From the NCBI GenBank assembly GCA_037139515.1, contig JBAXGH010000006.1, positions 1 to 55,089 on the forward strand: 55,089 bases of DNA, read 5' to 3'. The position numbers and the translations under genes were made by a program. This DNA comes from a bacterium. Its GTDB lineage: Bacteria; Patescibacteriota; Patescibacteriia; JBAXGH01. Position 1 is the first letter of the stretch. Every line of letters begins with the position of its first letter. Shown here piece after piece: positions 13,336-33,467 of this stretch. The notes under the pieces are model-generated. The model searched no databases and had not been told where the DNA came from. It saw nothing but the letters and a program-made list of their open reading frames with translations.

Positions 13336-14949
13336 ATGAACAAACCTACCGACAAAATCAAATATTTTCTTTACGCGAGAAAATCATCGGAGAGCGATGA
13401 CCGTCAGGTTCAGTCTATCGATGATCAAATAAATCGCCTCAAGGAGTTCGCAAAAACTCTCAATCTTGATGTGAAAGAAATCATCACCGAGGCTATGTCC
13501 GCAAAGAAGCCGAGCGCGCGACCCATCTTCACCAAGATGATGGAGCGCATACAAAAAGGCGAGGCTCAAGGAATTCTTTGTTGGCAGATCAATCGCCTCA
13601 GTCGCAATCCAGTCGATTCTGGAATGATTAGCTGGATGCTTCAGCAGGGCGTATTGAAGTGCATTCAAACGATAGACCGTCAGTATCTCCCAGATGACAA
13701 TGTGCTCCTTTTCAACGTGGAAAGTGGCACCGCGAACCAATTTGTCATTGATTTACGCAAAAACAGCATGCGTGGCATGGTCGGAAAGGCGGATCGCGGT
13801 TGGTATCCATCTCGTGCTCCACTTGGGTATCTCAACGAAAAGCTCGAACACACCATTTATGAAGATCCAGAGCGCTTTGAGATGGTTCGAAAAATGTGGG
13901 ACATGATGCTGACGGGAAATTTCTCTCCGCCAAAGATCATCGAGATTGCGAATCGGGAGTGGGGCTTCCGAACATCAAAAGGTAAACGCCGTGGTGGCAA
14001 CGAACTCATTCAAAGCGTCATCTATAAAATGTTCGCCAATATTTTTTATACGGGAATGTTTGAATGGTCAGGAAAACTCTATAACGGAAATCACAAGGCA
14101 ATGATTACCATGGAAGAGTTTGATCGCGTGCAGATTCTCTTGGGTAGAAAAGGTAGACCTCGTCCCAAAACACATGCCTTCGCTTACACGGGTCTCATGC
14201 GCTGTGCAGAATGTGGCTCGATGTACACCGCTTGTGAGAAAACTAAAGTAGTGAAGAGCGAGGGGGTGCTAAAAACATACGTTTACTATTCTTGTACCAA
14301 AAAGAAGAAGGACACTAGGTGTACCCAACGCCCCATGACACTCGAAGAACTTGAAGGACAGGTAGATATCGAACTTGAAAGATATACTATCCTCCCCCAA
14401 TTTCAACAGTGGGCTCTTGAGATATTGAATCGCAAGAATGACGAGGAAATAGTAGATCGAACCAAGATATACGAGACGCAACACGCTTCTCTTACGGAAA
14501 CACAGAAAGAGCTCGATAATCTCACCCGCATGCGCTATCGGGAGCTTATTGATGACTCTACATTCATTCAGGAACGCGACATCTTGAAAGAGAAAATCTC
14601 TAAACTCAAAAATAATCTACGAGAAACGGAGAACCGCGCCGAGGTGTGGCTTGAGCTTACTGAGAAAACTTTTCACTTCGCTACCTACGCACGTCATAAA
14701 TTCCAAACAGGAACTCTTGATGAGAAGCGCGAGATCTTCACCGCACTTGGTCAGAACTTTTTGGTAAAAGATAAGAAAGTCAGCATTGATACCAATAAAT
14801 GGTTCCTTCCAATCGAAAAGGCTTATCCAGCACTCGAAGCAGCATTCAATCGGCGGGAACTAAATAAAAACGTTGATAACAAAAGCAGAAGTGAACACAG
14901 GGATTCACTTCTGCTCTTACTGGGTGCCCAACCGGATTCGAACCGGTGA
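13336..14949 (+). CDS. Large serine recombinase (integrase)
   Basis: YARKSS catalytic motif, NRLSRN, APLGY, Zn ribbon (CAEC...C...C), coiled coil; the ORF ends inside tRNA-His. Confidence 0.95.
   Translation: MNKPTDKIKYFLYARKSSESDDRQVQSIDDQINRLKEFAKTLNLDVKEIITEAMSAKKPSARPIFTKMMERIQKGEAQGILCWQINRLSRNPVDSGMISWMLQQGVLKCIQTIDRQYLPDDNVLLFNVESGTANQFVIDLRKNSMRGMVGKADRGWYPSRAPLGYLNEKLEHTIYEDPERFEMVRKMWDMMLTGNFSPPKIIEIANREWGFRTSKGKRRGGNELIQSVIYKMFANIFYTGMFEWSGKLYNGNHKAMITMEEFDRVQILLGRKGRPRPKTHAFAYTGLMRCAECGSMYTACEKTKVVKSEGVLKTYVYYSCTKKKKDTRCTQRPMTLEELEGQVDIELERYTILPQFQQWALEILNRKNDEEIVDRTKIYETQHASLTETQKELDNLTRMRYRELIDDSTFIQERDILKEKISKLKNNLRETENRAEVWLELTEKTFHFATYARHKFQTGTLDEKREIFTALGQNFLVKDKKVSIDTNKWFLPIEKAYPALEAAFNRRELNKNVDNKSRSEHRDSLLLLLGAQPDSNR
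14881..14918 (-). terminator. Element-supplied terminator for tRNA-His, inside the recombinase ORF
   Basis: AGCAGAAGTGAA...TTCACTTCTGCT inverted repeat with a T tract on the minus strand. Confidence 0.7.
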
Positions 14950-14994
14950 AAACAGGACCACAACCTGTTGTGTTACCGCTACACTATGGGCACC
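14923..14994 (-). tRNA. tRNA-His (GTG)
   Basis: G-1 plus GTGCCCA/TGGGCAC acceptor stem, C discriminator, anticodon arm ACAGG-TTGTGGT-CCTGT, T arm ACCGG-TTCGAAT-CCGGT. Confidence 0.97.
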
Positions 14995-20800: not shown

Positions 20801-20883
20801 CGTCATCCTCGCGCTTGACGCGAGGACCCATGACGATCAGACATGGGTCCTCGATAACTCGTGCTCGAGTTTCGAGGATGACG
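20801..20883. repeat. GTCATCC...GGATGAC REP-like palindrome
   Basis: Terminal CGTCATCCTCG/CGAGGATGACG; related copies at 27120-27208, 27052-27077, 35086-35112 and 38051-38111. Confidence 0.75.
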
Positions 20884-20894
20884 TCCACCTTTGT

Positions 20895-22979
20895 TTATTT
20901 CTTAATCGGTCTGGAAGCCTTAACCGAAGTGATGATTTTTATCGCACCATTGTTATACTCGATCACAATCGGGCCGTTGATCGAATAATTTTGCGCGTCT
21001 TCCGAAGCGCTGAGTGTAATCGTCATGACCGCACCTTGCTGCTCATAGCTCGCGTTGATTTTTCCGTCGGTATAGGTAAACGGAATCGTGAGCTTCTTGC
21101 TATCTTTCGGCGTGATAATCAGGTTTCCATTGGTTTCCGAGGACGGGCTGACGGTGAAAGCGAGCGGAACTTCCTTTCCCTTCAATTGATTTAAATCAAT
21201 GTTGAAGTCACAGCCGGCGAATGGATCGTTTGGATCAGCGGTTTTTGGCGCTGTTTCCTTCGGTTTTTCCGGCACGCCGGTAATATCATCGATTCGGAGA
21301 GTTGCACCGGCCCAATCGCCGGAAAGCTCCGTAAGCGCCGGGAAAAGCGGAATTCCGAAACGCTCGTTCAAGAATTTTCGATATTCATTTTTACCATCTT
21401 TGCCGAAATACAATCGCGCGCCCATCGCGATATCGTCAACCGAAATTTTACCGTCCATGATTAGCCCATTCAATTCCGAAAGTTCCGCGCGATTAGTGTC
21501 GGCCATCATTTTTTCGGCGAAGTGATACAAAACATCAAGTTTGTTTTCGAAGTCCAAGCCTTTATCCAGACCGACCGGACCAAGCGTCGCATCAAAAAGA
21601 TTATTTTTCTTAAAAGACTCGACGAGCAGCTTCAGCTTATCTTCCTGATCCTTAATTGCCGCCTCTTGTTTGGAGCGATCTTCAAACTGCTGTCTGTACG
21701 ACTCCTTCATGTCTTCGCGAACCCGTTCTTCCTGAGCAGTAGTGAGCTTTTCCATGCCGGAATCAACTCGAGCAGCATTTTCTTTCTTGATGGCGTCGAT
21801 TTCTATCTGACGGCGAACGCCGCGCATCTGGTCCCAAACGGCCCCAAAATCACCCTTATCATTATTGTAACCCCAGAATTTTCCATTGGCTCCTTTTTGA
21901 AAAGCGGTATAGGCTGCTTCGACTTCGGCATTTTTCCAGGAACCGATTTGTGCATTGATAGCTTCGACCGCAACTTTGCCGGCGGTCACAATCACAAACT
22001 TATCAGCAATCTGTTCACCGATAATTTTGGTTGCATCTTTATATCTGCCTTCAGCGACAAAACCGGCGGCCTGCGAAACAGCGGCAACATCTTTTGATCC
22101 CTTGACGATGGTTGCGAGGCCGGCCTGAAGTGCTGACTTTGGAACATTTTCCGCAATCTTTCCGGCAGCAATCAGCGCAATCTTTTCATTCATGCCGACA
22201 ACGTCGCCTTTCTTGTATTTATCGTAAACCTCTTTATAGGCATCATTCTTCAGTACTTCACCAAGCACCTTCCCTTTTATTGTCTTGTCCGAAATTCCCA
22301 TTTTTTCGAGCGAGATATCAATGATTTGTTTCGCGACATAGTCGGAAGTCTTGTTAATCTCTTTCTTCAGATGATTATCGAGCGACTTTGAATGCACCCA
22401 GCGCTCGGTGAGCACAGTTTCGTCAGCAATTTTGTTCGCGCCGAACAGACTAAAATGATAAGTCTCAAAAGTTATAAGCCCAGTCGCAAGGTCAACCGAA
22501 AGCGGCTTCAGATATTCCCAGCGTTCACCGCTAAAATATGCGACGTTGATTCTGTCGGCCGTAACTCCGACCGGAATCTGATTCGCCGCCATCTTGAACG
22601 TGATTTTTGCCGGCTCATCAAGACGCGTCGGCTTTCCGATAGAAATTTCGATCGGTGCACCGATGGTTTCAACCTCTTTCGAGGCATAGTCCGGCACACT
22701 TTCCGGATTCGCAAGACTAACTTCGACGTTGCTCGTAAAAGCACCAGCCGGCACGCTCACCAAAACCAAGTTCTTTTCTAAATCCCCAAGCACCGCTTCT
22801 TTCGTCGCATCAACCGTCGATTTAATCGGCTCCGAAATCGTCTTATCGAATTTCCAGGCCGAGTCACCGAGCCCAAGCTTACTCACCGAACCTCCGGATT
22901 TCTTCATCATGCCGTAACCAAAATAGCCAACGGCGCCTATAATAACGACCGCGGTCAACACTTTGAAAATATTTTTCAT
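20895..22979 (-). CDS. Membrane-anchored extracellular protein (possible ZU5-like beta domain)
   Basis: N-terminal TM helix; VSVPAGAF...HFSLFG pattern. Confidence 0.75.
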   Translation of the reverse strand: MKNIFKVLTAVVIIGAVGYFGYGMMKKSGGSVSKLGLGDSAWKFDKTISEPIKSTVDATKEAVLGDLEKNLVLVSVPAGAFTSNVEVSLANPESVPDYASKEVETIGAPIEISIGKPTRLDEPAKITFKMAANQIPVGVTADRINVAYFSGERWEYLKPLSVDLATGLITFETYHFSLFGANKIADETVLTERWVHSKSLDNHLKKEINKTSDYVAKQIIDISLEKMGISDKTIKGKVLGEVLKNDAYKEVYDKYKKGDVVGMNEKIALIAAGKIAENVPKSALQAGLATIVKGSKDVAAVSQAAGFVAEGRYKDATKIIGEQIADKFVIVTAGKVAVEAINAQIGSWKNAEVEAAYTAFQKGANGKFWGYNNDKGDFGAVWDQMRGVRRQIEIDAIKKENAARVDSGMEKLTTAQEERVREDMKESYRQQFEDRSKQEAAIKDQEDKLKLLVESFKKNNLFDATLGPVGLDKGLDFENKLDVLYHFAEKMMADTNRAELSELNGLIMDGKISVDDIAMGARLYFGKDGKNEYRKFLNERFGIPLFPALTELSGDWAGATLRIDDITGVPEKPKETAPKTADPNDPFAGCDFNIDLNQLKGKEVPLAFTVSPSSETNGNLIITPKDSKKLTIPFTYTDGKINASYEQQGAVMTITLSASEDAQNYSINGPIVIEYNNGAIKIITSVKASRPIKK

Positions 22980-23042
22980 AACAAAATTAGTTCGGATGAA
23001 GTTTACTTGCTCCGAACTAATCGTGTCAAAGTTATCGCAATT

Positions 23043-24164
23043 TTATTTTTCTACCTTCTGCGAACAAAGATCCTGAAGTGAAGATGCTTGATTAATAATA
23101 TATCGTTCACGCAAGCTCAAATAACCACTCTGCATTACCTTTACGCTATTGAGAAAATAGAAACTAATATCATCTCTCAATTCGGAATAATCATATCTTC
23201 TGAGAGCAGCGAACTTCGTAAGGTCCAAATCGCCGCCAAGAATATTTTTTTTCATCTTCACTTCAGCGGATTTCAGAAAATCTGATTCTGACATCTTTAA
23301 AGCCTCGGCTACTTCTTTCGCAGAATGAGCCGTCGTGAACCAGGCAGTAAGACGCATTGCTTTGCCGGTATAATCAGGCACGTATTCAATCCGGAAGTAT
23401 CCGTTTAACTTATTCGGCAAATAGTAATACTTTTCAGCTTCCGTTTTGAACTCGTTTTTCAGATAGGAATTTTCTGACTCTGAAATCTTAGACAGATCAA
23501 AATTAAAACTTCCGCCCCAGTCGGATTTCCTCTCAACATTCATCATTTCTTCTAAGAAAATCGAGATAAGTGGCCCGCTCTTCGATAACCACGGTTTCAG
23601 TGCCCCACCCAATCCGACTTCGATTGTATACGAACTTGCTTCCCGTGATAATTTCGGCGCTGTAAATATCGGCTGCAGACTGGTCATGACGGTTTCAATT
23701 TCTAAGTCGCTTCGCGGTGCGCTTCTTTTGTCCGATCCGCGATATTCAAACGCGCCTTCAGAGCCAGTCACACAATCATTACAATGATCTAATATTCCCT
23801 GGCCATCTGACTTCGAAACCGATTTGAGCGAAATACTTTTATTTCCCAAATCGCTCTTCACCGTCGAAATTTCAGCCGCGCTTAGTGTTTTCAAATATTG
23901 CGCATTACGAAAGTCACCGAGAAAAACATTTCCGTTATTGCAAATCACCGAGTAGCCTTCGGAATAACCAGCAAAGCCACCATGCAGGATGTTACGATTC
24001 ACAAGCAACGCATTTGTCGGTAAAACCAAATCACTGGCAGATTTATTAGTTCCGTTAGGATATAAAACTTCTTCCCGAACTACAAAATACCAATAACCAA
24101 AAACCGCTAGACTGAGTAACACTGCACTAGCTCCGATTCCAACCAAGAGTGTTTTAACTTTCAT
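23043..24164 (-). CDS. Membrane-anchored hypothetical protein
   Basis: N-terminal TM helix after MKVK; long ORF. Confidence 0.75.
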   Translation of the reverse strand: MKVKTLLVGIGASAVLLSLAVFGYWYFVVREEVLYPNGTNKSASDLVLPTNALLVNRNILHGGFAGYSEGYSVICNNGNVFLGDFRNAQYLKTLSAAEISTVKSDLGNKSISLKSVSKSDGQGILDHCNDCVTGSEGAFEYRGSDKRSAPRSDLEIETVMTSLQPIFTAPKLSREASSYTIEVGLGGALKPWLSKSGPLISIFLEEMMNVERKSDWGGSFNFDLSKISESENSYLKNEFKTEAEKYYYLPNKLNGYFRIEYVPDYTGKAMRLTAWFTTAHSAKEVAEALKMSESDFLKSAEVKMKKNILGGDLDLTKFAALRRYDYSELRDDISFYFLNSVKVMQSGYLSLRERYIINQASSLQDLCSQKVEK

Positions 24165-24189
24165 ATATCGGTATTTTAGCACGCTAAAC

Positions 24190-24228
24190 CAAAAAGCCCC
24201 GGGAGGCATTAAGCATCCCGAGGCTTTT
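24190..24228 (-). terminator. Intrinsic terminator
   Basis: AAAAGCCCCGGGA...TCCCGAGGCTTTT. Confidence 0.65.
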
Positions 24229-24234
24229 CTGATT

Positions 24235-24774
24235 CTAAATATGACAATCAAAAACCAAAACCGCTTTATCTTTATTTTCTTCCAAAATCTTTTTTACTTT
24301 TTCGATCCAAGCGTCCAGCTCGCGGTTGTCTTCCTCGGTACCGGCGCCGTAAAACATCGGACCCTGAATCCATTTTCCGTCCGGAGTGAAGACTGCGAGT
24401 ACAATTCTTTCTTGATTACCTTCGCCGAATAATTGCACTCCGTAATTTTCAGGCCGAGCTTCTCCAAGCATGACGCAATAATCAAAATGCCCTTCCGGAT
24501 TTTGTGTTGAGATATTAAACAAGCCGCCTTCATCAACGCCGCCTTCGGTACCGTCCCATGTCTTCATGTACGCTGCGAGTGGTTTTAAATCACTCGGATC
24601 GAGTTCAGTATATTCCGCCATGCTCTTGATTTGTTCCGGAGAAATATACGTTTTATACGGCGGAACTTCGGTGTTGATATTAAACTTTTCAAGCATCTCA
24701 ACCGTTTCGCTCTCTATTTGTTCTAACCCGCGCTCACCTCTTTCCACCAAAACCACGGCATTATAATGAGACAT
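24235..24774 (-). CDS. Hypothetical protein
   Basis: 179 aa; MSHY...NPEGHFDY...VFTPDGKW...DCHI. Confidence 0.8.
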   Translation of the reverse strand: MSHYNAVVLVERGERGLEQIESETVEMLEKFNINTEVPPYKTYISPEQIKSMAEYTELDPSDLKPLAAYMKTWDGTEGGVDEGGLFNISTQNPEGHFDYCVMLGEARPENYGVQLFGEGNQERIVLAVFTPDGKWIQGPMFYGAGTEEDNRELDAWIEKVKKILEENKDKAVLVFDCHI

Positions 24775-25043
24775 AATAATCTTGAATAGTAGTTACGAAC
24801 GATTGTATCGAGAATTGAGGTATTTAAAAAGCGTACCGTTGTAGAAACCGGTGCGCGAGTGATGAATGTGGTGGGAATTACGCCTAGCCGCACAGCGCGT
24901 GCGGCGTCGTTGTCCGGGGCTCGGCGACGCACGATGTGCCTCGCCGACGTTCCGCGTCGGTCGCCATGGCGACCTAGCGTCACTTCTGCCCGTTCGATTC
25001 CCACCAGATAATATTAAAATGCACCAACTTGCGTTGGTGCTTG

Positions 25044-25406
25044 TGGTGGAGGTGGTGGGAATCGAACCCACGTCCGAAAAGGATCTACAGGGTGCATCTT
25101 CGCGCGTAGCTTCATGATCGGCGATGTTCCGCCCTCGGTTCACGAGCAAACCGGCTTGGGTCTTGACCCTCGCGGCGCATCACAATCTGTCTTATTTTCC
25201 CGTAGCTGTGATACCCGGGAAAACCAGCCTCACATTCTGCATCAGTTCACTCGCTTGAGGCGCGCAAGTGGCTGATGCCGGAGTTCATAGTCTCCGGAAC
25301 TGACCCATTCAGGCGGCAGTTTGGGGTTTGCCCGTGATTTACGTGGCCTCGGGCACCACGGCGCGCAGCATCCAGCTTCATCTCTCCGTCGAAACCTGTC
25401 ACCCCC
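25044..25406 (-). ncRNA. ssrA: tmRNA
   Basis: 5' GGGGGTGACAGGTTTCGAC and 3' GACGTGGGTTCGATTCCCACCACCTCCACCA; G3:U70 pair; PK1 (CGTGG/CCACG, TGCCCG/CGGGCA); 363 nt. Confidence 0.96.
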
Positions 25407-25481
25407 TCAAAACTGATTACACTATAATCAACTTTGAGGGAACGCGCACCGGTGTGAACACGGTGCGGAAAGAGGAAAAGT

Positions 25482-26012
25482 TCAGGTATAGGTGCAGAGC
25501 GCATCTTCGTCGTTCATGCAGTCGTGCGAGGGGTAGCGGCTGAAGCTCCGAAAGAATTCCGGCTTCAGAACAGTACACTCGCCCGGCTCATGTTGAGCAA
25601 AGAAGTGCGCGAAAGTGACGGCGACCGCGTAAGAAACGTTGTGCTTCAGCTTGCGAACCACGTCCCCATTCACTTCCTCAACCACGCGCCAGCCTTTGCG
25701 CTCTACATCGCGATGATCAAAGCAGCTGCAGGTGCGGTTCCCGTATCGGACACAAACAACCGAACTCGGAAAATGGGTTTCGGCTCGAAGATCTTCTTCG
25801 CACCTCGGCCTGGCGTAGTGCTCGGTGTAGACATAGTCGGGTGATTTTTCATCCCCCGCTCGTCCGAAATAGTCGATGGCCTCGGCATAGGTCGGAAACT
25901 TTCTGAGGGCCGAAAAAGTCTCGTTCGCCTCGATGATGTTTCCAACGGTCCGGATGCCGACCCAGAACTCTTCTTGAACCTTCACAACGTCCAACAAGTT
26001 TTCTGCGCTCAT
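25482..26012 (-). CDS. Hypothetical protein
   Basis: GGAGG RBS before the ATG at 26012. Confidence 0.65.
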   Translation of the reverse strand: MSAENLLDVVKVQEEFWVGIRTVGNIIEANETFSALRKFPTYAEAIDYFGRAGDEKSPDYVYTEHYARPRCEEDLRAETHFPSSVVCVRYGNRTCSCFDHRDVERKGWRVVEEVNGDVVRKLKHNVSYAVAVTFAHFFAQHEPGECTVLKPEFFRSFSRYPSHDCMNDEDALCTYT

Positions 26013-26087
26013 GTGAGCCTCCGTATCAGTGCGGAAAGAGGTTATCCCTTTCCTTCTCAAAAGCTCGAGTTACAAATCGAGCACTTA

Positions 26088-26916
26088 AGAAGAAACGGGA
26101 GCTAGAGTTTCCTCCAGCCCCCGTGCGTCCCTTGCGGGAAGAGTCAGTAGCGAGTTTAGAGAGGGTTGGCGATAACACAGTTACGCAAAGTCCCTTTTCT
26201 ATCTCGCTTGCATCCTTGGAGGATTCATCATGAGGCGCTTCGCGAACTGCGCTGCCCCAAATGTCCCGTCCCAAGAGGTACTACTGTCAGATGACGTTTG
26301 CCAAGGTCGCAGACCCTAGCATTCGTCTTATCTTACGCCGCTCCATTCGGAGCAAGGCGCGGGTGTGCGTGAGCTCGGTTGACGCCGACTCCGCCCTTCA
26401 CCCGGGATTCCTTGCGAGCGGTTGTCATTCCACTCCAAGGCTATCTCTCGATTCCCTCCTTTCACCCCTTTGGGGATCCCGGAAGGTGGCAAGAAGGGCT
26501 GCGAACCCCACCGAGGATTTTGGCCCTCGAACCTGCACGTAAGGCGTCTGTCTGCCTTGCGCCGTCGCCCCAATTAGGAGCTCCGCTTTGACACTTGACC
26601 CAATGTTTACCGGTCGAACTTCCTTTAACCAGGCGAGTATTCAGCTACAGGCTACGGCCCGTGCCTAGTCGTCGCTCCGGCAGAAGTCCTATCCCTTCAC
26701 GAACGCTTTTGCATTCGCTACAGGCTTTTGCCCTTCCTTACGCTCGTCGCATCCCCGTATCCTCCTTGAAGGTTTGTTCGGGTCAGCTCGGATTGTTTCG
26801 GTCGGGCGAGGTTCCGGCACTCCCTCATCGATATGATTGGCTCATTCGAGCCGATCTAAAGTTTCGATTCTTTCGAAGCTTCGGATCGGCTCGAAGTGCC
26901 TTGCGTCATCATCACG
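26088..26916 (-). ncRNA. Candidate large structured ncRNA (~830 nt)
   Basis: Consensus promoter upstream, terminator hairpin at the 3' end, many short hairpins, no credible ORF. Confidence 0.6.
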
Positions 26917-26922
26917 AGCAGT

Positions 26923-26951
26923 ACTATAACACGATTTCAAATTTCTGTCAA
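26923..26951 (-). promoter_or_regulatory. Sigma70 promoter
   Basis: TTGACA-17bp-TATAGT. Confidence 0.85.
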
Positions 26952-27119
26952 GCGTCTAGTGTTCATGCTCTGACATTTTTGCTCTGTTGCAGGCATTAAT
27001 TGTCTATTTCTAGCTTTATTTTCAATGCTGTCATCCTTCGCCATTATTGTTGTCATCCCGAAGCCGAGGCATCTTGAAATGTGTTTTCCGAATCCTGCGA
27101 AGAGGACTAACTCTTAAGA

Positions 27120-27208
27120 CGTCGTCCTTGAAACTCGAGCACGAGTTATCAAGGATCCATGTTGGTCATGGGTCCAGGGTAAAGTCTGCTGACTTTTCGA
27201 GGATGACG
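27120..27208. repeat. REP-like palindrome related to 20801-20883
   Basis: Shares GAAACTCGAGCACGAGTTATC (inverted) and the CGAGGATGACG terminus. Confidence 0.7.
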
Positions 27209-27287
27209 AAGTGATTACCCCTCTTTGTTTGAATCCTATCTTTGGGCGGCAGATAGGCGTGCCTTTTTTAAAAGCCCCAACTAGACT

Positions 27288-27485
27288 TCAGTGTCCGAAA
27301 CGGTTTTCGCGATGAAGACGCCCGCGGCGGCCATGCTTGATCTCCGCCGCCATCATGGCGAGCGGCTGGAATTCGGGCGAATCCTCGCCATCAACCGAGC
27401 ACTCGAGCATCTCGAGGAGCTTCAACCCCCCGAAAGGCCCGTCGAAAACGTTCTGGGAATTTTTCTTCCCGCTTTCTCGCGCCAT
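27288..27485 (-). CDS. Small hypothetical protein (65 aa)
   Basis: GGAGG RBS before MARESGKK. Confidence 0.5.
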   Translation of the reverse strand: MARESGKKNSQNVFDGPFGGLKLLEMLECSVDGEDSPEFQPLAMMAAEIKHGRRGRLHRENRFGH

Positions 27486-27612
27486 ACTTCCTCCGCTTCT
27501 CGCCAAGTGGCGAGAAATGAAAACTGGAGCCCTATGCCCCACCGAAGTTTTCGAGTCGCTCAAAGCGTCTCAAAAATTTTGGTGGGGGTGGAAGTTTTGA
27601 GGACTTCCAAAC

Positions 27613-28140
27613 CTATTCCGCGAGGTAGCGCTCGATCCCAATGCGGAGAGCGCCTTCATCGTCGGGGGTGACGTCCATTTTGCAAGAGCCATCACAGGTC
27701 GTCGTCGTGACCTTGTGCGAACAACCCTTCGTCGGGTCATGCGCCCAGTCGAAGCTTGTGTGAACTTCGACGTGGTGAGTGCCGGTGCAAAAGCTGTCGC
27801 TCGAACTGCTACGCTTTCCGTAGCTAGTATCGAACCGACGGCCCGAAATTGCACCATCACGCGCGAACATCTCCGCCGAACCCGCGTCCAACTCAACCGG
27901 GTCTTCGACGATTCTGTCGCCTTCAACCAGAGACTTTCCTCCGCGGAGCTTTTGAAGCTCGACACGAAGGTCCGCCTCCTTCCTGCACGAACCATCGCAG
28001 TCACCTTCGACCGCAACGTCGTTCCTCGACTCGCCCGTATGACCGAAGTCATCGAGCGTCTTGCAGATGTGCTGCTTGCCGTCGCAAAAATGCAACGTCT
28101 CCCAGCCATCCGACCAGCCATGCTGATGCTTGCGCATCAT
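27613..28140 (-). CDS. Cys/His-rich hypothetical protein with repeated CDGSC motif
   Basis: GGAGGATTC-ATG; CDGSCRK and CDGSCKM repeats. Confidence 0.6.
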   Translation of the reverse strand: MMRKHQHGWSDGWETLHFCDGKQHICKTLDDFGHTGESRNDVAVEGDCDGSCRKEADLRVELQKLRGGKSLVEGDRIVEDPVELDAGSAEMFARDGAISGRRFDTSYGKRSSSSDSFCTGTHHVEVHTSFDWAHDPTKGCSHKVTTTTCDGSCKMDVTPDDEGALRIGIERYLAE

Positions 28141-28218
28141 GAATCCTCCATGCCTCGCCTTTTCAGGAGAGGACTTGTGGGTTGTGAATTGCAGTTGGGA
28201 TTATCCCACCCTCACAAG

Positions 28219-28323
28219 CTACCGCTTCTTGTTCGCCACGAACAGAGCTATCGTGGCTCGAAGAACAGGTATCTGTGAGAGAAGAACAAATCCGAGAACC
28301 AGCCACTGTGCCTGGACGCTCAT
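28219..28323 (-). CDS. 34-aa hydrophobic peptide MSVQAQWLVLGFVLLSQIPVLRATIALFVANKKR
   Basis: AAGGAGG RBS 5 nt upstream of the ATG; below the ORF-track cutoff. Confidence 0.5.
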   Translation of the reverse strand: MSVQAQWLVLGFVLLSQIPVLRATIALFVANKKR

Positions 28324-28466
28324 AAGCGCCTCCTTGGAGCAGGATGCCCCACCAAAAATCTCAAATTGATTTGAAAGCTTTGGTGAAGCTGCAAGGTATT
28401 CGGTCTTTTATTTCCTTGCTTTCCTCTTTTTTTTATCGTGCGGTCAGACGAGGAATCCGCACTAGC

Positions 28467-28682
28467 CTACCCTTCATAGTAGGCTTCTACCCGTGACCGA
28501 AGATCCCGATCTCGCCAGCAGAGTTTGAGGATTCGCGCCTCATCTCTGTCGGTGATTTCGAGCTTCTTCCCATGAATGACTTCGCAGCCACTCAGGGTCA
28601 CGCCGGTTGCACATCCCAACCGGAGATCGACACGAATGTGCCGACCGCGATAGCGGATTTCATGGCAGTCATAGGTCGCCAT
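28467..28682 (-). CDS. Small protein, paralog 1 (YRGR family)
   Basis: Alignable with 29150-29356; AAAGGGG RBS. Confidence 0.7.
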   Translation of the reverse strand: MATYDCHEIRYRGRHIRVDLRLGCATGVTLSGCEVIHGKKLEITDRDEARILKLCWRDRDLRSRVEAYYEG

Positions 28683-28699
28683 GCTCACCCCTTTCTGGC

Positions 28700-28975
28700 C
28701 GAGTTGTCGGCCGGTAGTTAGTAAGGAAATGCGCGTGCGGGATTCTCAGGTCGGGAATGGCTTTTGGCCACCTGAGTCTTTATCCGCTTACGTTTCGCGC
28801 CAACGCCTGTGACTGGCGGTCACAGGAAGGATTGGTTCGGAAGCGTCCTGGCCTCATCAAGAGTGTCTAGGGCTTGCCGAGCCCGGGATTGCGAACTTCC
28901 GCAACCTTTTCGACTCTCTCGCTGTACCTTTTCGCTCCGAGCCTATCGAGGACCTTTCAGTACCCCGGAACCCGC
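28700..28975 (-). ncRNA. Structured RNA motif 1, copy a
   Basis: Conserved blocks and hairpins shared with 29375-29625. Confidence 0.65.
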
Positions 28976-29149
28976 TTGAAAGTTCATTGAAAACTCTCAA
29001 GCTGGTCCCGGGATAGTGGCCCCACCGAAGCATTCGAGTCGTCTCAAATGTTTTGGTGAAGCCCGCAAGTTTCTGAAAATTCTCAGAAACCTGCGTGACG
29101 GTGACGGCTCGTTAGGCCCCCTGGAGCTTCCCCAGAGAATTACGGCCGA

Positions 29150-29356
29150 TCAGTCGGCATCTCCCAGCGTTCGGGCGCCCTTGCATTCGGGCTTCCGATC
29201 GATGAGCATGTCCAGCCGGCGCATGTCGCGCTCGGTGAACATGAGTGGCGCCCCTCGGAGGATTTCAATTCCTCCTCCCTCGAGGCTACCGTACCGCAGT
29301 GTCACCCGAAGGAGACGACCACGGTAGTACAGCTCACAACCCGTGTACCATGCCAT
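29150..29356 (-). CDS. Small protein, paralog 2 (YRGR family)
   Basis: Alignable with 28467-28682; AAGGAGG RBS. Confidence 0.7.
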   Translation of the reverse strand: MAWYTGCELYYRGRLLRVTLRYGSLEGGGIEILRGAPLMFTERDMRRLDMLIDRKPECKGARTLGDAD

Positions 29357-29374
29357 GGTGGCCTCCTTGGTGGG

Positions 29375-29625
29375 TTAGAGAAAGTAAGTCGGGCAACTTA
29401 TGGGTTATATCTGCTTTGGCGGTGGTGGGACATTGTCCCGCGCCTTGCAGACGTTTCCCATTCACATTGCGGCCCGTTTCACAACGCCTGATTTTGGCTG
29501 ATCAGGGGGGATCAGGATTACGCTTCCTGGCCTCGACACGATTTGAGTTAGGGCTGCCAGGCCCGCTCAAACCATGCTGTACCTTTGGCGCTTTCCCGTT
29601 TCGAGGACCCCTCGGAACCCCGTTT
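29375..29625 (-). ncRNA. Structured RNA motif 1, copy b
   Basis: Conserved blocks and hairpins shared with 28700-28975. Confidence 0.65.
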
Positions 29626-29769
29626 CAGTCATCGAGTATCGATGCTTGAAATGGGATTCCGAAGTGATCATCGTAGAGCTCTATGCCCCATCGAAGAGTC
29701 TGATTTTTCAGACGCTTTGATAGAGCCCGCACGAAAGCAGTGAAGCTCTTCGTGCGGAAGAAAGCAGAC

Positions 29770-30025
29770 TCGGGTTGGTGCAACACTTGCGTGTTGACTT
29801 GGCCCCGAGTTTTTGCCCGACCACTTTTCCGGTCAGGACTTTTCTTTCGAAGGGGCCCAAGCGACCCTCCGAAAGATACGCGGACATTCAGCCCATTTTC
29901 GTCGGAACCGCGAACCGACGATTATCCTTCCCGGTGCACTAGGGAGGGCGGGCCACGGAGGGTGACTTCATGCACCCTTGCAAGACAGATCGGCGCCGAT
30001 CCGTGCTTGCAAGGCTCCGTGGAGC
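29770..30025 (-). ncRNA. Structured RNA motif 2, copy A
   Basis: 35/37 nt identical block and compensatory stems versus 30103-30385. Confidence 0.65.
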
Positions 30026-30102
30026 AGTCTATAGCGTCCTCAAAATCGAGCGGCGCCCGTTATCTCGACGTAGCTGCTCAGCCACCTCCGAGGCGGTAGG
30101 GT

Positions 30103-30385
30103 TCGGGTTGGTTCAACACTTGCGTGCTGACTTGGCCCCTTGCCCTATTGTGTCCTCTACCGTCTCCGGTGAGGATTCTTGCGTTCTCCAAGGCGCCCAA
30201 GCGAGCCTCGGATAATCGTGGGCTAAGTTGCCTCATTTACTCCTCTCGCCCCACGCGTCGAGAGAAGCTATCCTCCGTGGTGCACTTCGGAGGCTGAGGG
30301 GTGTTGCGCACGACGGGTGATACTGCTGCACCCCTCACGAGTCGGCCGGAAATCGGTCCGACGCTCGCGAGTTCCGTCGTGTCTT
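30103..30385 (-). ncRNA. Structured RNA motif 2, copy B
   Basis: 35/37 nt identical block and compensatory stems versus 29770-30025. Confidence 0.65.
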
Positions 30386-30559
30386 ACTCGCCCGCCGCTT
30401 CCTCTTTCGAAGCCCGCGGGTCGGTGAAATTTTATTTACTGGCAGTCTTCGCTCGCCAGGCGTCCGGGAACTGCCCCCAGATTTTAACGAAGCCTGTGAC
30501 CCGGGCCGTCGGGGCGAGATACTTGACTCGCAACGTTTAGACTTCTTGGCCGGATGGGT

Positions 30560-30937
30560 TCAGGTCTTGGGCACCGACGGAATCACTTCCGCCGGCAGGT
30601 CGCGCAAGACCTTCTTCACCTCCTCCGTTTGACCGGTGAGGCTGAAGTAGTCCTTGCATCCCTGGCGCTCCTCGGCGCTATCCACTTCCTTGAGTCCCAT
30701 CCTTTCCACCGCAATCGCTCTTCCCAGACACCACTGCCCCATATTTTCCGGGGCGAGCGGCTCGAAGAAGAACATCTGCAGGGCGGCCATGACTATCGCG
30801 CTGAGGCTCATCTGTTTCTCCGCATGCCTCACCATCCCTGGCGAGGACTTGTGATTTTGGAGCTCCTTGCTCCGCCGAAGAGCCTGGTTTGTCAGGCGCT
30901 TGAGTGGAGCAAGGAGTCTTTCGAGTTGGTCTGTCAT
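30560..30937 (-). CDS. Hypothetical protein, nearly leaderless
   Basis: ATG 13 nt downstream of a consensus -10. Confidence 0.6.
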   Translation of the reverse strand: MTDQLERLLAPLKRLTNQALRRSKELQNHKSSPGMVRHAEKQMSLSAIVMAALQMFFFEPLAPENMGQWCLGRAIAVERMGLKEVDSAEERQGCKDYFSLTGQTEEVKKVLRDLPAEVIPSVPKT

Positions 30938-30950
30938 CTCGCTGGGCAGG

Positions 30951-30979
30951 ACTATAACATAAACTTTTAATTATGTCAA
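30951..30979 (-). promoter_or_regulatory. Sigma70 promoter
   Basis: TTGACA-17bp-TATAGT. Confidence 0.85.
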
Positions 30980-31117
30980 GTGTCAGGTGTACATGGCAAG
31001 TTTATTTATCTAAAATGAGCCGATTTATAAACTAATAAACAACATGACTGTCCGTGATAGTGTATTTGAAAATTGAAAAATCACCACTCTTGATGGTGAT
31101 TTTCATCGACAAATCCA

Positions 31118-31387
31118 TTATCTCAACTTTCGATAGATCGAATGGTCTCCAACGCGCAATAATTCGACGATATTCCCCTCCTTAAATCGAAATGCAACTC
31201 GATTGTGATAGTCGACGCTGAAGGACCAGCGATTTTTATGATTTGAAAGCTTGTGCGTTTTGAGAAGTGGATGAAACGGATTTTCTTGAAAAAGACGCCC
31301 GCGAACTTTTACCGATTCCCGGATAGAGACGGGCAGTTTTTTGTAATCGCGTTTAAACTCCGGGGCATAAAATATTTCGTATCCCAT
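31118..31387 (-). CDS. Type II toxin, RelE/YafQ family mRNA interferase
   Basis: FKRDYKKL...NPFHPLLKTHKL...WSFSVDYHNRV...VGDHSIY. Confidence 0.9.
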   Translation of the reverse strand: MGYEIFYAPEFKRDYKKLPVSIRESVKVRGRLFQENPFHPLLKTHKLSNHKNRWSFSVDYHNRVAFRFKEGNIVELLRVGDHSIYRKLR

Positions 31388-31395
31388 ATATACGA

Positions 31396-31671
31396 TTAGG
31401 CATCCAGATCATCCCAATTTTTCAGCTTTTTAGCCTTCCCGGCATCACACAATCGTTCAGCTTCAGCGACAAGTTTATCTAGATGCTTCATATCGTAGGC
31501 ATAACTATCTGCAACGAGAGCATTATAAGTTTCAACGTCTAACATCACCGCCTCGGGAACGCTGTTATTGATAATGAGAACCGCATCATGGCTTTTCTTG
31601 GCAGAGTCAATCACGGCACGATAGTTTCGCTGCAAATCCCGCACGGAATATGTTTGGGTAATAGATGTCAT
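31396..31671 (-). CDS. Type II antitoxin, Phd/YefM family
   Basis: SVRDLQRNY...VLIINNSVPEAVML; directly upstream of the toxin; TTGACT-17-TAGTAT promoter. Confidence 0.9.
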   Translation of the reverse strand: MTSITQTYSVRDLQRNYRAVIDSAKKSHDAVLIINNSVPEAVMLDVETYNALVADSYAYDMKHLDKLVAEAERLCDAGKAKKLKNWDDLDA

Positions 31672-31726
31672 ACGCTGACATACTATTGTATGTAAAATTA
31701 TAAGTCAAGAAACTATCCTCAAATCA

Positions 31727-31775
31727 AAAACCCCATCAGAGACTTCGAGGATGCTTGAAGCTTCTGATGGGGTTT
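31727..31775. repeat. Intergenic palindrome family member
   Basis: AAAACCCCATCAGA...TCTGATGGGGTTTT; near-identical arms at 32504-32549. Confidence 0.75.
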
Positions 31776-31855
31776 TGCATTTTATCCTGCCCTATCGAAG
31801 CTCAGAAATATTTCCGAGTTTTGATAGGGAGAGAAGGCCGGAGAACTCGAAGTTC

Positions 31856-32266
31856 TCAACGCCTTCCCACTGACCCGCGAGCGAGCGGGATCCTTTGATC
31901 AGGGTCGATGGTCACGGTCCGGATTCCGATTCGCAGGGCGAGGTGGCCCTTCGTATCCCGAACGTACCAACCGCTCTGTTTCGAGCATTGCGCCCTACCA
32001 AAAACCGCTTCGCCGGTTCCAGTCGAGATTTTGATCTCGACGCACTCCATCTTTCGATGGAGACGACGGAACTCGTCGATGCAGTAATAGTAAGCGCACC
32101 ACTCGCCTTTCTCGAGATGCGGCTCGACAAAATAGTCCGAGCCGCCGTGGAGTGCGCAAGTCTCCACTATCTGTGCGGCCTCTCCAGCCCACTCGTCGGC
32201 ATGGGCCTGCAACTTGCCCCACACCTTCGGCGACGAAGCGGCCACGATTTTGATGTGTGTACCCAT
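31856..32266 (-). CDS. Hypothetical protein
   Basis: GGAGGATTC-ATG; 5' UTR shared with 27613-28140. Confidence 0.65.
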   Translation of the reverse strand: MGTHIKIVAASSPKVWGKLQAHADEWAGEAAQIVETCALHGGSDYFVEPHLEKGEWCAYYYCIDEFRRLHRKMECVEIKISTGTGEAVFGRAQCSKQSGWYVRDTKGHLALRIGIRTVTIDPDQRIPLARGSVGRR

Positions 32267-32588
32267 GAATCCTCCTGTGCCTCGGTTTTCAAGCGAGGAC
32301 TTGTGAGGGTGTTTGTTGCCGGCAATGACCGCTTGCCAAGCGCCCCGGAGCTTCCCCGGAGTATTACGGCCGAATATGTCGGCATCAGTTTGCGACTCAT
32401 GATCGTAGACGGGATTTGTGCACCGATATTCCGGTACACCCGTTCGTTCGATCAGAGCCATATATTTTCAATTTTGTCTTATTCTGAGATTTTGATTTTC
32501 ACCAAAACCCCATCAGAAGCTTCAAGTGTTCTTGAAATCTCTGATGGGGATGGGAGTATCGTGAGACTCCCGGCTCTTTGCATGCCTC

Positions 32589-32990
32589 TCAGTGATCCTT
32601 TTTCTTCGCCGTGAAGTACTTCATTTGAACATACTTGGCGAGAGCGAGGATAACGAGTATCGGCGTGCAAACCTCGCGGAACACCGGCATGCACAACAGC
32701 ATGATGCCGGTCACGGCGAGCCAGAACGTAATGCTCTTCAGGCATTCCTCATGGAGGATACCCAAGGGCACCGCGCCGATCATGGCGCCGACAAGAATCT
32801 GTCGGCTGCCATCGTCTGCGTTTGTCGTGAAGAATACGACAACTCCGGCGAGGACCGCGACCGCGAGCGCGATGAAGGCGCCCTGCCGGATCGCCGCCTC
32901 CGCCGGGGTGTGGTGCCGCGTCGCGACGATGGTCGCAACAAGAATCGCGAGCGGAACCAACCACCACATGGAAACGATGAGCTCAGCCAT
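32589..32990 (-). CDS. Small multi-pass membrane protein
   Basis: About four hydrophobic segments; AAAGGA RBS. Confidence 0.7.
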   Translation of the reverse strand: MAELIVSMWWLVPLAILVATIVATRHHTPAEAAIRQGAFIALAVAVLAGVVVFFTTNADDGSRQILVGAMIGAVPLGILHEECLKSITFWLAVTGIMLLCMPVFREVCTPILVILALAKYVQMKYFTAKKKDH

Positions 32991-33467
32991 GGTGCGTTCC
33001 TTTCCGGAGCCTGTGGCTCTCAAGGGTGGGTCCAAAGAACTTTACTTCGCGCGAGGGGACAGTCCCCTGCGGCTTTGGGGACGGTCCCCGTCGCGCGAAT
33101 TACCATTTCATCCAGAATAGAGGGATGGAAAGCATTCGGGGTTCTGACTTCGTTCGGCGGGCGCCCCTATAAAGAAGGCAAGTTGCCGAAATCGGAGACG
33201 TACTGACCGGTGCTTCCAACACTCTATTCTGAGCGAAATACGTTTGTCAAAGACTGCAAACCTTTTTCTGACAAGCAATATAACACATTCCGGCAAACAT
33301 GTCAAGAGATTACTTAACGCTTTATCAGCAATAACTTATTATACGGCTTATATAAGCTATTATTTGTATGTTATCTTCAACGTACAAAGTATACTTTTAC
33401 GATATATCAAAACACCTGGCATTAAAGTCAGGTGTTGACAAATTATGACAAGTGTGTTAGTATACTG

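Follow-up and report, generated by a model that had tools for sequence, protein, structure and literature searches.

A minus-strand locus in the 55,089-nt stretch of DNA analysed here (the window) probably encodes a genuine, highly expressed, large structured non-coding RNA (ncRNA) that is an orphan of its lineage and whose leaky termination would feed the downstream gene p176; we put the probability of this reading at roughly 0.6. The genome to which the window belongs (1.33 Mb in 40 contigs, 99.96% complete) is the sole member of its family in the collection used, and the relatives in that collection are all of the same class, with genomes of 0.7–1.3 Mb. Few large structured RNAs without a known function have been described (OLE, GOLLD, ROOL, raiA). 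In the ~1-Mb genomes of Patescibacteria, 830 nt of non-coding DNA behind one of the strongest promoters would be costly and likely to matter. The RNA, if real, would be a compact target for probing and cryo-EM, and recent cryo-EM work is reported to show some large structured RNAs forming unexpected RNA-only assemblies (PMC12286853). A literature search on Patescibacteria together with structured or large ncRNAs gave no paper containing those RNA terms.

The sequence-only reading of this locus had proposed an RNA bounded by a promoter and a terminator, and both signals were located on the minus strand. A sigma-70-type promoter, TTGACA-17-TATAGT with the TG of an extended -10 element, occupies 26951..26923 with 11 of 12 matches. 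Promoter-like sites with at least 11/12 matches number 38 genome-wide (1.33 Mb), and the combination of TTGACA, a 17-nt spacer, TG and at least five of six matches in the -10 occurs at 13 sites, the ncRNA promoter among them. Three of these 13 sites, all on the minus strand, are in the accessory island that contains the RNA (33305, 30979 and 26951). At the other end, an intrinsic terminator with a 13-bp stem, a GAAA loop and a U-rich tail (ACGGGGGCTGGAG-GAAA-CTCTAGCTCCCGT, then TTCTTCTT; 26124..26095, minus strand) was predicted with a pair probability of 0.98. The predicted transcript is ~828 nt in length (26916..26089, minus strand), its start being placed ~7 nt past the -10 element and its end at the terminator U-tract. 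The transcript is composed of 254 G, 215 A, 214 C and 152 U; hence it is 56% purine, as the description of a purine-rich minus strand had implied, and 56% GC, as compared to 48% GC for the whole window. A search of sequencing runs with the locus matched only the probable source DNA run, X1, and no RNA run was among the matches.

Folding of the 835-nt minus strand gave an MFE of -356.1 kcal/mol, as opposed to -297.8 +/- 4.7 kcal/mol for 20 dinucleotide shuffles (z -12.3), and the plus strand gave -317.7 versus -285.3 +/- 9.0 kcal/mol (z -3.6). The excess over the shuffles thus amounts to 58 kcal/mol on the minus strand and 32 kcal/mol on the plus strand, and this strand specificity is what selection on an RNA, with its G-U pairs on the transcribed strand, would produce and DNA palindromes would not; part of the excess may nevertheless belong to the island as a whole, since the coding sequence of p175 in the same GC-rich island also folds well (z -4 to -6). 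The signal varies along the RNA: of the 300-nt windows, two in the 3' third had z of -7.2 and -5.1 and the one at the 5' hairpin had -5.1, whereas the middle third was unremarkable at about -2. The 5' hairpin (26845..26895, minus strand) has 23-nt arms that form an inverted repeat with 87% complementarity and pair probabilities of 0.96–0.98. A block of four well-defined hairpins at 26289..26440 (minus strand; helix probabilities 0.76–1.00) was used to build the covariance model R1 described below. The hairpins named from the sequence by eye are all present in the MFE fold, with pair probabilities of 1.00 for GCGAAUGC/GCGUUCGU, 0.89 for GCUCC/GGAGC, 0.93 for UCGG/CCGA and 0.82 for UCCC/GGGA. 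The long-range CAGTAG/CTACTG pairing that had been raised as a possibility is likewise predicted, as a CAGUAGU/GCUACUG helix of minus-strand positions 26286–26280 with 26151–26145 (pair probability 0.83), which would close a 3' domain at 26145..26286. Within the RNA, only one weak 24-nt repeat pair (75% identity) was observed and tandem repeats were absent.

The 3' domain contains a hypervariable three-tier hairpin (26150..26207, minus strand) for which two alleles are available. A metagenome scan anchored on p176 yielded a single contig, L010 (3989 nt), from a second strain of the same organism, which corresponds to window positions 22626–26610 at 99.4% identity. Of the 30 differing columns, 25 fall within a 50-nt patch at 26160–26210 (column 26210 is just outside the stem), and the remaining five lie in the terminal 20 nt of L010, three at one end and two at the opposite one. 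The rest of the 3' 520 nt of the RNA, p176, the tmRNA gene, p179 and part of p402 are otherwise identical in L010. Run X1 carries both versions as a bubble at 26130–26240, the alternative at a depth of 8.3 and the reference at 6.9, indicating that the population is dimorphic. Both alleles fold to the same three-tier hairpin (-17.8 and -21.7 kcal/mol). Between the two, the outer stem GCGAG/CUCGC is kept, with A-U becoming G-U; in the middle stem, C-G takes the place of one A-U pair and two additional U-A pairs lengthen the stem; and the inner hairpin gives way to an unrelated one with 4 additional nt. Chimeras that join the 5' half of one allele to the 3' half of the other lose 2.4 and 4.9 kcal/mol of stability relative to the native alleles, although against interior shuffles each native hairpin reached a p of only ~0.05. 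RNAalifold on the two alleles, whose variable part is poorly aligned, gave a different local fold in which 0 of 28 pairs showed double changes. In the full-length MFE fold of the reference allele the patch pairs with 26238–26272, a pairing that the alternative allele cannot form; hence the local hairpin is the fold common to both. We regard the allele comparison as modest but real support for constraint at the RNA level.

A patch with ~45% divergence, set in 4 kb that are identical apart from it, cannot have arisen by point mutation and must have been brought in by recombination from a more divergent copy, so that other versions of the RNA presumably exist unsampled. A second dimorphic patch, with 23 differences, covers the N-terminus and 5' UTR of p176 (25884–26029), and in source run X1 its two alleles were found at depths of 10.7 and 15.7 (window 25854–26059). 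Since L010 combines the reference form of the p176 patch with the alternative RNA hairpin, the two patches assort independently.

The gene that follows the RNA, p176 (25482..26012, minus strand), encodes 176 aa, has GGAGG ahead of its ATG and a dicodon score of 0.26, and starts 82 nt past the terminator stem. No promoter-like site was identified between the terminator and p176 (26095–26012); p176, having an RBS and no promoter-like site of its own, therefore probably depends on terminator read-through. By our own count, 13 of the 20 coding differences between its alleles are at third codon positions, which is the signature of a real protein gene. The succession of promoter, RNA, leaky terminator and p176 also suits a less likely alternative, in which the RNA would serve p176 as a long structured leader, or as a partner that controls or neutralises it, in the manner of a type III toxin-antitoxin or attenuator-like unit. 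Other small genes of the island, p68 and p71, sit behind paralogous structured leaders of ~300 nt, and the p176 family is small and sporadic, as is the case for accessory genes: it has 40 representatives among 1.84 billion proteins, and homologues were detected in two of 400 other genomes of the class, at seven loci in the species collection (located with our own degenerate DNA pattern) and in none of the viral contigs. The homologues sit in genomes titled Candidatus Uhrbacteria or Patescibacteria group. A separate search for p176 protein homologues returned only p176 itself. Members of the family are ~180–200 aa in length, start with MSAEN and share R-x-C-x-C-x-D-x-RD, QPGE and H-D-C motifs with conserved Cys and His residues.

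The setting of these homologues speaks against a dedicated leader or partner. In the seven other genomes with a p176 homologue, nhmmer and BLAST revealed nothing resembling the RNA near the gene, and R1 found nothing in the five of the seven that were searched whole. Instead, the homologues are found in same-strand runs of small ORFs, and the closest one (39% identity, genome G017) directly follows small ORFs; the RNA is thus not an obligatory partner of p176. Moreover, the RNA has no tandem repeats, and p176 matches no toxin family: no assignment was obtained from Pfam, PHROGs, PADLOC or NCBIfam, and 0 of 34 family members matched Pfam. The structure model of p176 is confident (pLDDT 93.6), and no match was found for it by Foldseek against the PDB at E<=0.001; VIA-align gave a best Z of 4.9 and an ESM Atlas search gave scores below 0.8. 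In G017, the region at C19 3000–7300 consists of small RBS-led ORFs on the same strand, separated by a repeated hairpin-plus-T element, and adjoins an ORF-poor stretch with a folding z of -4 to -8. This run resembles the island studied here, which suggests that the island type recurs even though the sequences are unrelated.

The island itself is on the minus strand, GC-rich (54–61%) and extends from about 25400 to 33300. Its order in the direction of transcription is the promoter at 33305, the membrane protein p133, p136, a Phd/RelE-like pair, the promoter at 30979, p125, a structured ncRNA stretch of ~860 nt, two paralogous leaders with small ORFs, p34, p175, p65, two dispersed palindromic repeats, the promoter at 26951, the RNA with its terminator, p176 and tmRNA, the gene for the last of which is at 25044..25406 (minus strand; Rfam RF00023, 130.3 bits). 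Most of the island genes are orphans and the island is variable. The Phd/RelE-like pair (31118–31671, minus strand) is a probable type II toxin-antitoxin with its own promoter-like site and terminator hairpin; its first gene encodes a 91-aa Phd/YefM-like antitoxin, which matched PHROG 2268 at E 6e-7 and scored below the cut-off for TIGR01552, and the second is an ORF of 89 aa.

In an island of this type the region could also be non-functional DNA, made up of cassettes in decay or of accumulated palindromic (REP/MITE-like) elements, whose hairpins would lower the folding energy with no RNA function behind them; we consider this unlikely. The genome is rich in dispersed palindromes, with 95, 17, 14 and 7 BLAST hits for four elements at the flank of the locus or in the island, and two palindromic repeats (27044–27210) are immediately upstream of the RNA promoter; the variability of the island and its mostly orphan genes would also be in keeping with decay. 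None of the dispersed repeats of the genome, however, maps inside 26088–26951, and palindromes would fold equally well on both strands, whereas the excess observed was 58 kcal/mol on the minus strand and 32 kcal/mol on the plus strand. Furthermore, a strong promoter and terminator bracket the region exactly, and no remnant of an island protein was detected in it, as evidenced by tblastn with 13 island proteins, which gave nothing significant (best E 0.009 in a tiny search space).

Three of these four elements are at 27044–27084, 27117–27210 and 33047–33098. The query for the first (41 nt, for a repeat of ~35 nt) gave the 95 BLAST hits, which are spread over 31 contigs; the 94-nt query for the second, a hairpin element of ~90 nt, gave 17, and the 52-nt query for the third, a hairpin of ~47 nt, gave 14. 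An inverted partial copy of the ~90-nt element was noted at 20824–20885. The fourth element is a repeat of ~130 nt at 24870–25005, with about -70 kcal/mol and seven BLAST hits, which is just 3' of the tmRNA gene and begins with sequence similar to the 3' end of tmRNA; both copies on C11 and the one on C1, the three that were inspected, are each next to a tRNA gene, and other copies are on C10, C4 and C30.

Further structured stretches were observed in the island and elsewhere in the genome. The ~860-nt non-coding stretch at 29670–30562 (minus strand) comes directly after the 125-aa ORF behind the promoter at 30979, has an MFE of -399 versus -335 for shuffles (z -8.5) and no Rfam match at E<=5, and contains an internal duplication of ~110 nt (29770–29872 and 30103–30212, 73% identity). 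Two paralogous structured leaders of ~300 nt (28683–29018 and 29357–29672, minus strand) share conserved blocks, and each precedes one of the paralogous 71-aa and 68-aa ORFs (43% identical, E 8e-9); in a consensus fold of the two leaders, 11 of 43 predicted pairs are kept through double changes. On contig C13, a non-coding stretch of ~800 nt (C13:39560–40369, minus strand) has a TTGACA-17-TATATT promoter with TG and ends in a hairpin and U-run; its z is -3.95, and it has no Rfam match and no BLAST similarity to the RNA studied here.

Coding potential was the basis for weighing the possibility that the region encodes one or more small proteins and that the structure is that of an mRNA. The longest ORFs of the region are of 134 aa (plus strand, TTG start), 93 aa (plus strand) and 81 aa (minus strand, TTG start). 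A dicodon log-odds score trained on 429 long ORFs of the same genome was negative in all six frames across 26000–27200, with a best window of -0.06, whereas real genes scored 0.88 (BipA), 0.26 (p176), 0.32 (p175), 0.29 (p125), 0.20 (p136), 0.47 (p133) and 0.26 (p65). Pfam gave no match for the three ORFs of 134, 93 and 81 aa, nor did PHROGs for the two on the plus strand; the 31-aa and 36-aa ORFs of the region were assessed by dicodon score only. Our own ORF and dicodon-score calling, which is not a validated gene finder, puts the coding share of the genome at 89% and leaves 62 gaps of 450 nt or more that lack coding signal; the locus lies in the fifth-longest of them, and three of the nine longest fall in the island. 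The earlier statement that no ORF with an RBS is present stood insofar as there is no coding signal in any frame, and has to be amended in that a perfect AAGGAGG is located 8 nt ahead of a 4-codon ATG mini-ORF near 26750. That Shine-Dalgarno sequence and the 31-aa ATG ORF at 26333–26428, with its neutral dicodon score of 0.02, are what could be cited for a small protein; given that these two ORFs cover ~14% of the transcript, that no frame attains the dicodon scores of real genes and that the database scans gave no match, a coding function is very improbable. The suggestion of a structured ncRNA is supported by the signals at both ends, by the missing coding potential, by a folding excess that is specific to the strand and by the comparison of the two alleles.

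Several further candidates were tried and rejected. Genetic codes 25 and 4 were dismissed: with TGA read as a sense codon, frames open up all over the genome, and there is no need for such a reading since the housekeeping genes are intact under code 11. A pseudogene was considered since, on the plus strand, 26217–26232 (GGAGGATTCATCATG) resembles the start regions of p175 and p136; tblastn gave no significant match. The same 16-nt segment of the RNA (26217–26232) is complementary to the RBS and AUG of p175, and an antisense role was rejected as unsupported: by our own estimate ~0.5 such matches are expected by chance in a 9.2-kb island, and in an RNAduplex ranking of 198 SD-ATG sites p175 was outside the 12 best.

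Judged by covariance-model searches, the RNA belongs to no curated family. With Rfam 15 at gathering thresholds, only tmRNA and tRNA-His were identified in the window, and a permissive cmscan of 25400–27400 at E<=10 returned one snoRNA and two miRNA rows, all at chance level. GOLLD (RF02032), ROOL (RF03087) and OLE (RF01071) gave no cmscan row at the locus and 0 matches genome-wide at E<=10, and none was obtained in the control genomes either (14 in the case of GOLLD), so that these genome-wide negatives carry no positive control and would not decide the matter by themselves. Group I and group II introns gave no row at the locus under permissive filters at E<=10; the best genome match of group-II-D1D4-1 (RF01998), at E 1.43, is on another contig, and a group I intron was detected at the start of contig C17 (C17:47–385, 59.6 bits), demonstrating that the covariance pipeline works on this genome. 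RNase P RNA (RF00010/RF00011), of which a genome has one copy, gave nothing at the locus. The RNase P RNA of the genome is on contig C9 (C9:119–673, 118 bits), and 16S rRNA is also located elsewhere; the RNase P match spans 555 nt versus a model of 367 positions, which suggests large insertions. Riboswitch and leader families had no match at the locus in the permissive scan. The suggestion of a divergent GOLLD-like RNA thus found no support at the locus or genome-wide at E<=10, and the tRNA association typical of GOLLD was not seen either: the sole tRNA-like neighbour is tmRNA, ~680 nt downstream beyond a protein gene, and the one tRNA reported by ARAGORN in the window is at 14922–14993. The size of ~830 nt and the lake origin might recall GOLLD (for its name and size, PMC12286853), but membership of the locus in GOLLD, ROOL, OLE or any other Rfam family, even as a far-diverged representative, is hardly credible in view of the lack of any relevant Rfam match at E<=10 on the 2-kb locus and of any genome-wide match to these three families.

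Homologues of the RNA were sought at several distances, and none was found by BLAST, nhmmer or R1. BLAST within the genome recovered nothing beyond the RNA and the arms of its hairpin. None of 40 relatives gave a match, and among 400 other genomes of the class two gave chance-level hits only (39 nt and 22 nt; E 0.005–0.008). A blastn search in distant mode of phages and plasmids gave no match, and nhmmer and BLAST of the G017 locus and the seven p176 loci yielded nothing except one 21-nt match at E 1.5. R1, which represents the best-defined block (158 of ~828 nt, that is one domain), recovers its own locus at 198 bits, and matched 0 of 150 relatives and 0 of the 5 genomes with a p176 homologue. 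As far as can be seen, the RNA is restricted to one deep-branching, small-genome lineage that looks like Patescibacteria. The evidence comes from one locus in two alleles, which gives no basis for an analysis of covariation across species or for claiming a new RNA class.

In the reading we prefer, that of a large structured ncRNA, the near-consensus extended -10 promoter would probably drive strong transcription, and the RNA would fold into many local hairpins and a closed 3' domain, ending at a strong intrinsic terminator. It would most likely act as a folded RNA particle, like the "ornate" OLE, GOLLD and ROOL, and not as an mRNA, while a read-through fraction of the transcripts would probably supply the promoter-less p176. 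The peripheral hairpin at 26150–26207 would tolerate, or be selected for, full replacement of its sequence while its fold is kept. This natural two-allele hairpin is a ready-made test of which parts need only the fold and which parts need the sequence. A bolder version, which we find rather unlikely, is that a new class of large ornate RNA, peculiar to Patescibacteria-type bacteria, is seen here for the first time, encoded in an RNA-rich accessory island (at least three structured non-coding stretches in 5 kb), with the hairpin as a swappable specificity element that is kept dimorphic. If this were true, the hairpin might recognise, for example, a partner, a host or an invader, and the more divergent, unsampled copy from which the alternative allele came would mean that further family members exist in nature.

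Among known systems, the type III toxin-antitoxin units (ToxIN-like) provide the same succession of promoter, ncRNA, terminator and an RBS-led gene for ~170–180 aa without a promoter, and the arrangement of promoter, RNA, terminator and p176 appears to match such a unit in architecture only. Unlike those units, the RNA here is an 830-nt non-repetitive molecule and not a short tandem-repeat array, p176 matches no ToxN, CptN, TenpN or other Pfam or PADLOC model, and homologues of p176 elsewhere are without this RNA. Structured 5' leaders and riboswitch-type attenuators are similar in being structured RNAs that end in a terminator directly upstream of a gene; structured leaders are typically several times shorter than the ~830 nt predicted here, and no riboswitch or leader family was matched. 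GOLLD (RF02032) shares the size class of hundreds of nt, the many hairpins, the lake water and the variable, possibly mobile DNA. GOLLD RNAs have adjacent or nested tRNA genes and a phage or prophage context, whereas the RNA described here has neither an adjacent or nested tRNA nor phage genes nearby, as PHROGs matched 4 of 26 ORFs (an antitoxin, a peptidase and two of unknown function) and none of these was a phage structural gene. OLE and ROOL are typical of Firmicutes and of rumen or phage sources, and the locus differs from them in having no match to their models and in coming from what looks like a small-genome Patescibacteria-type bacterium; what it has in common with both is the kind of object, a large and ornate ncRNA whose role is obscure or poorly understood.
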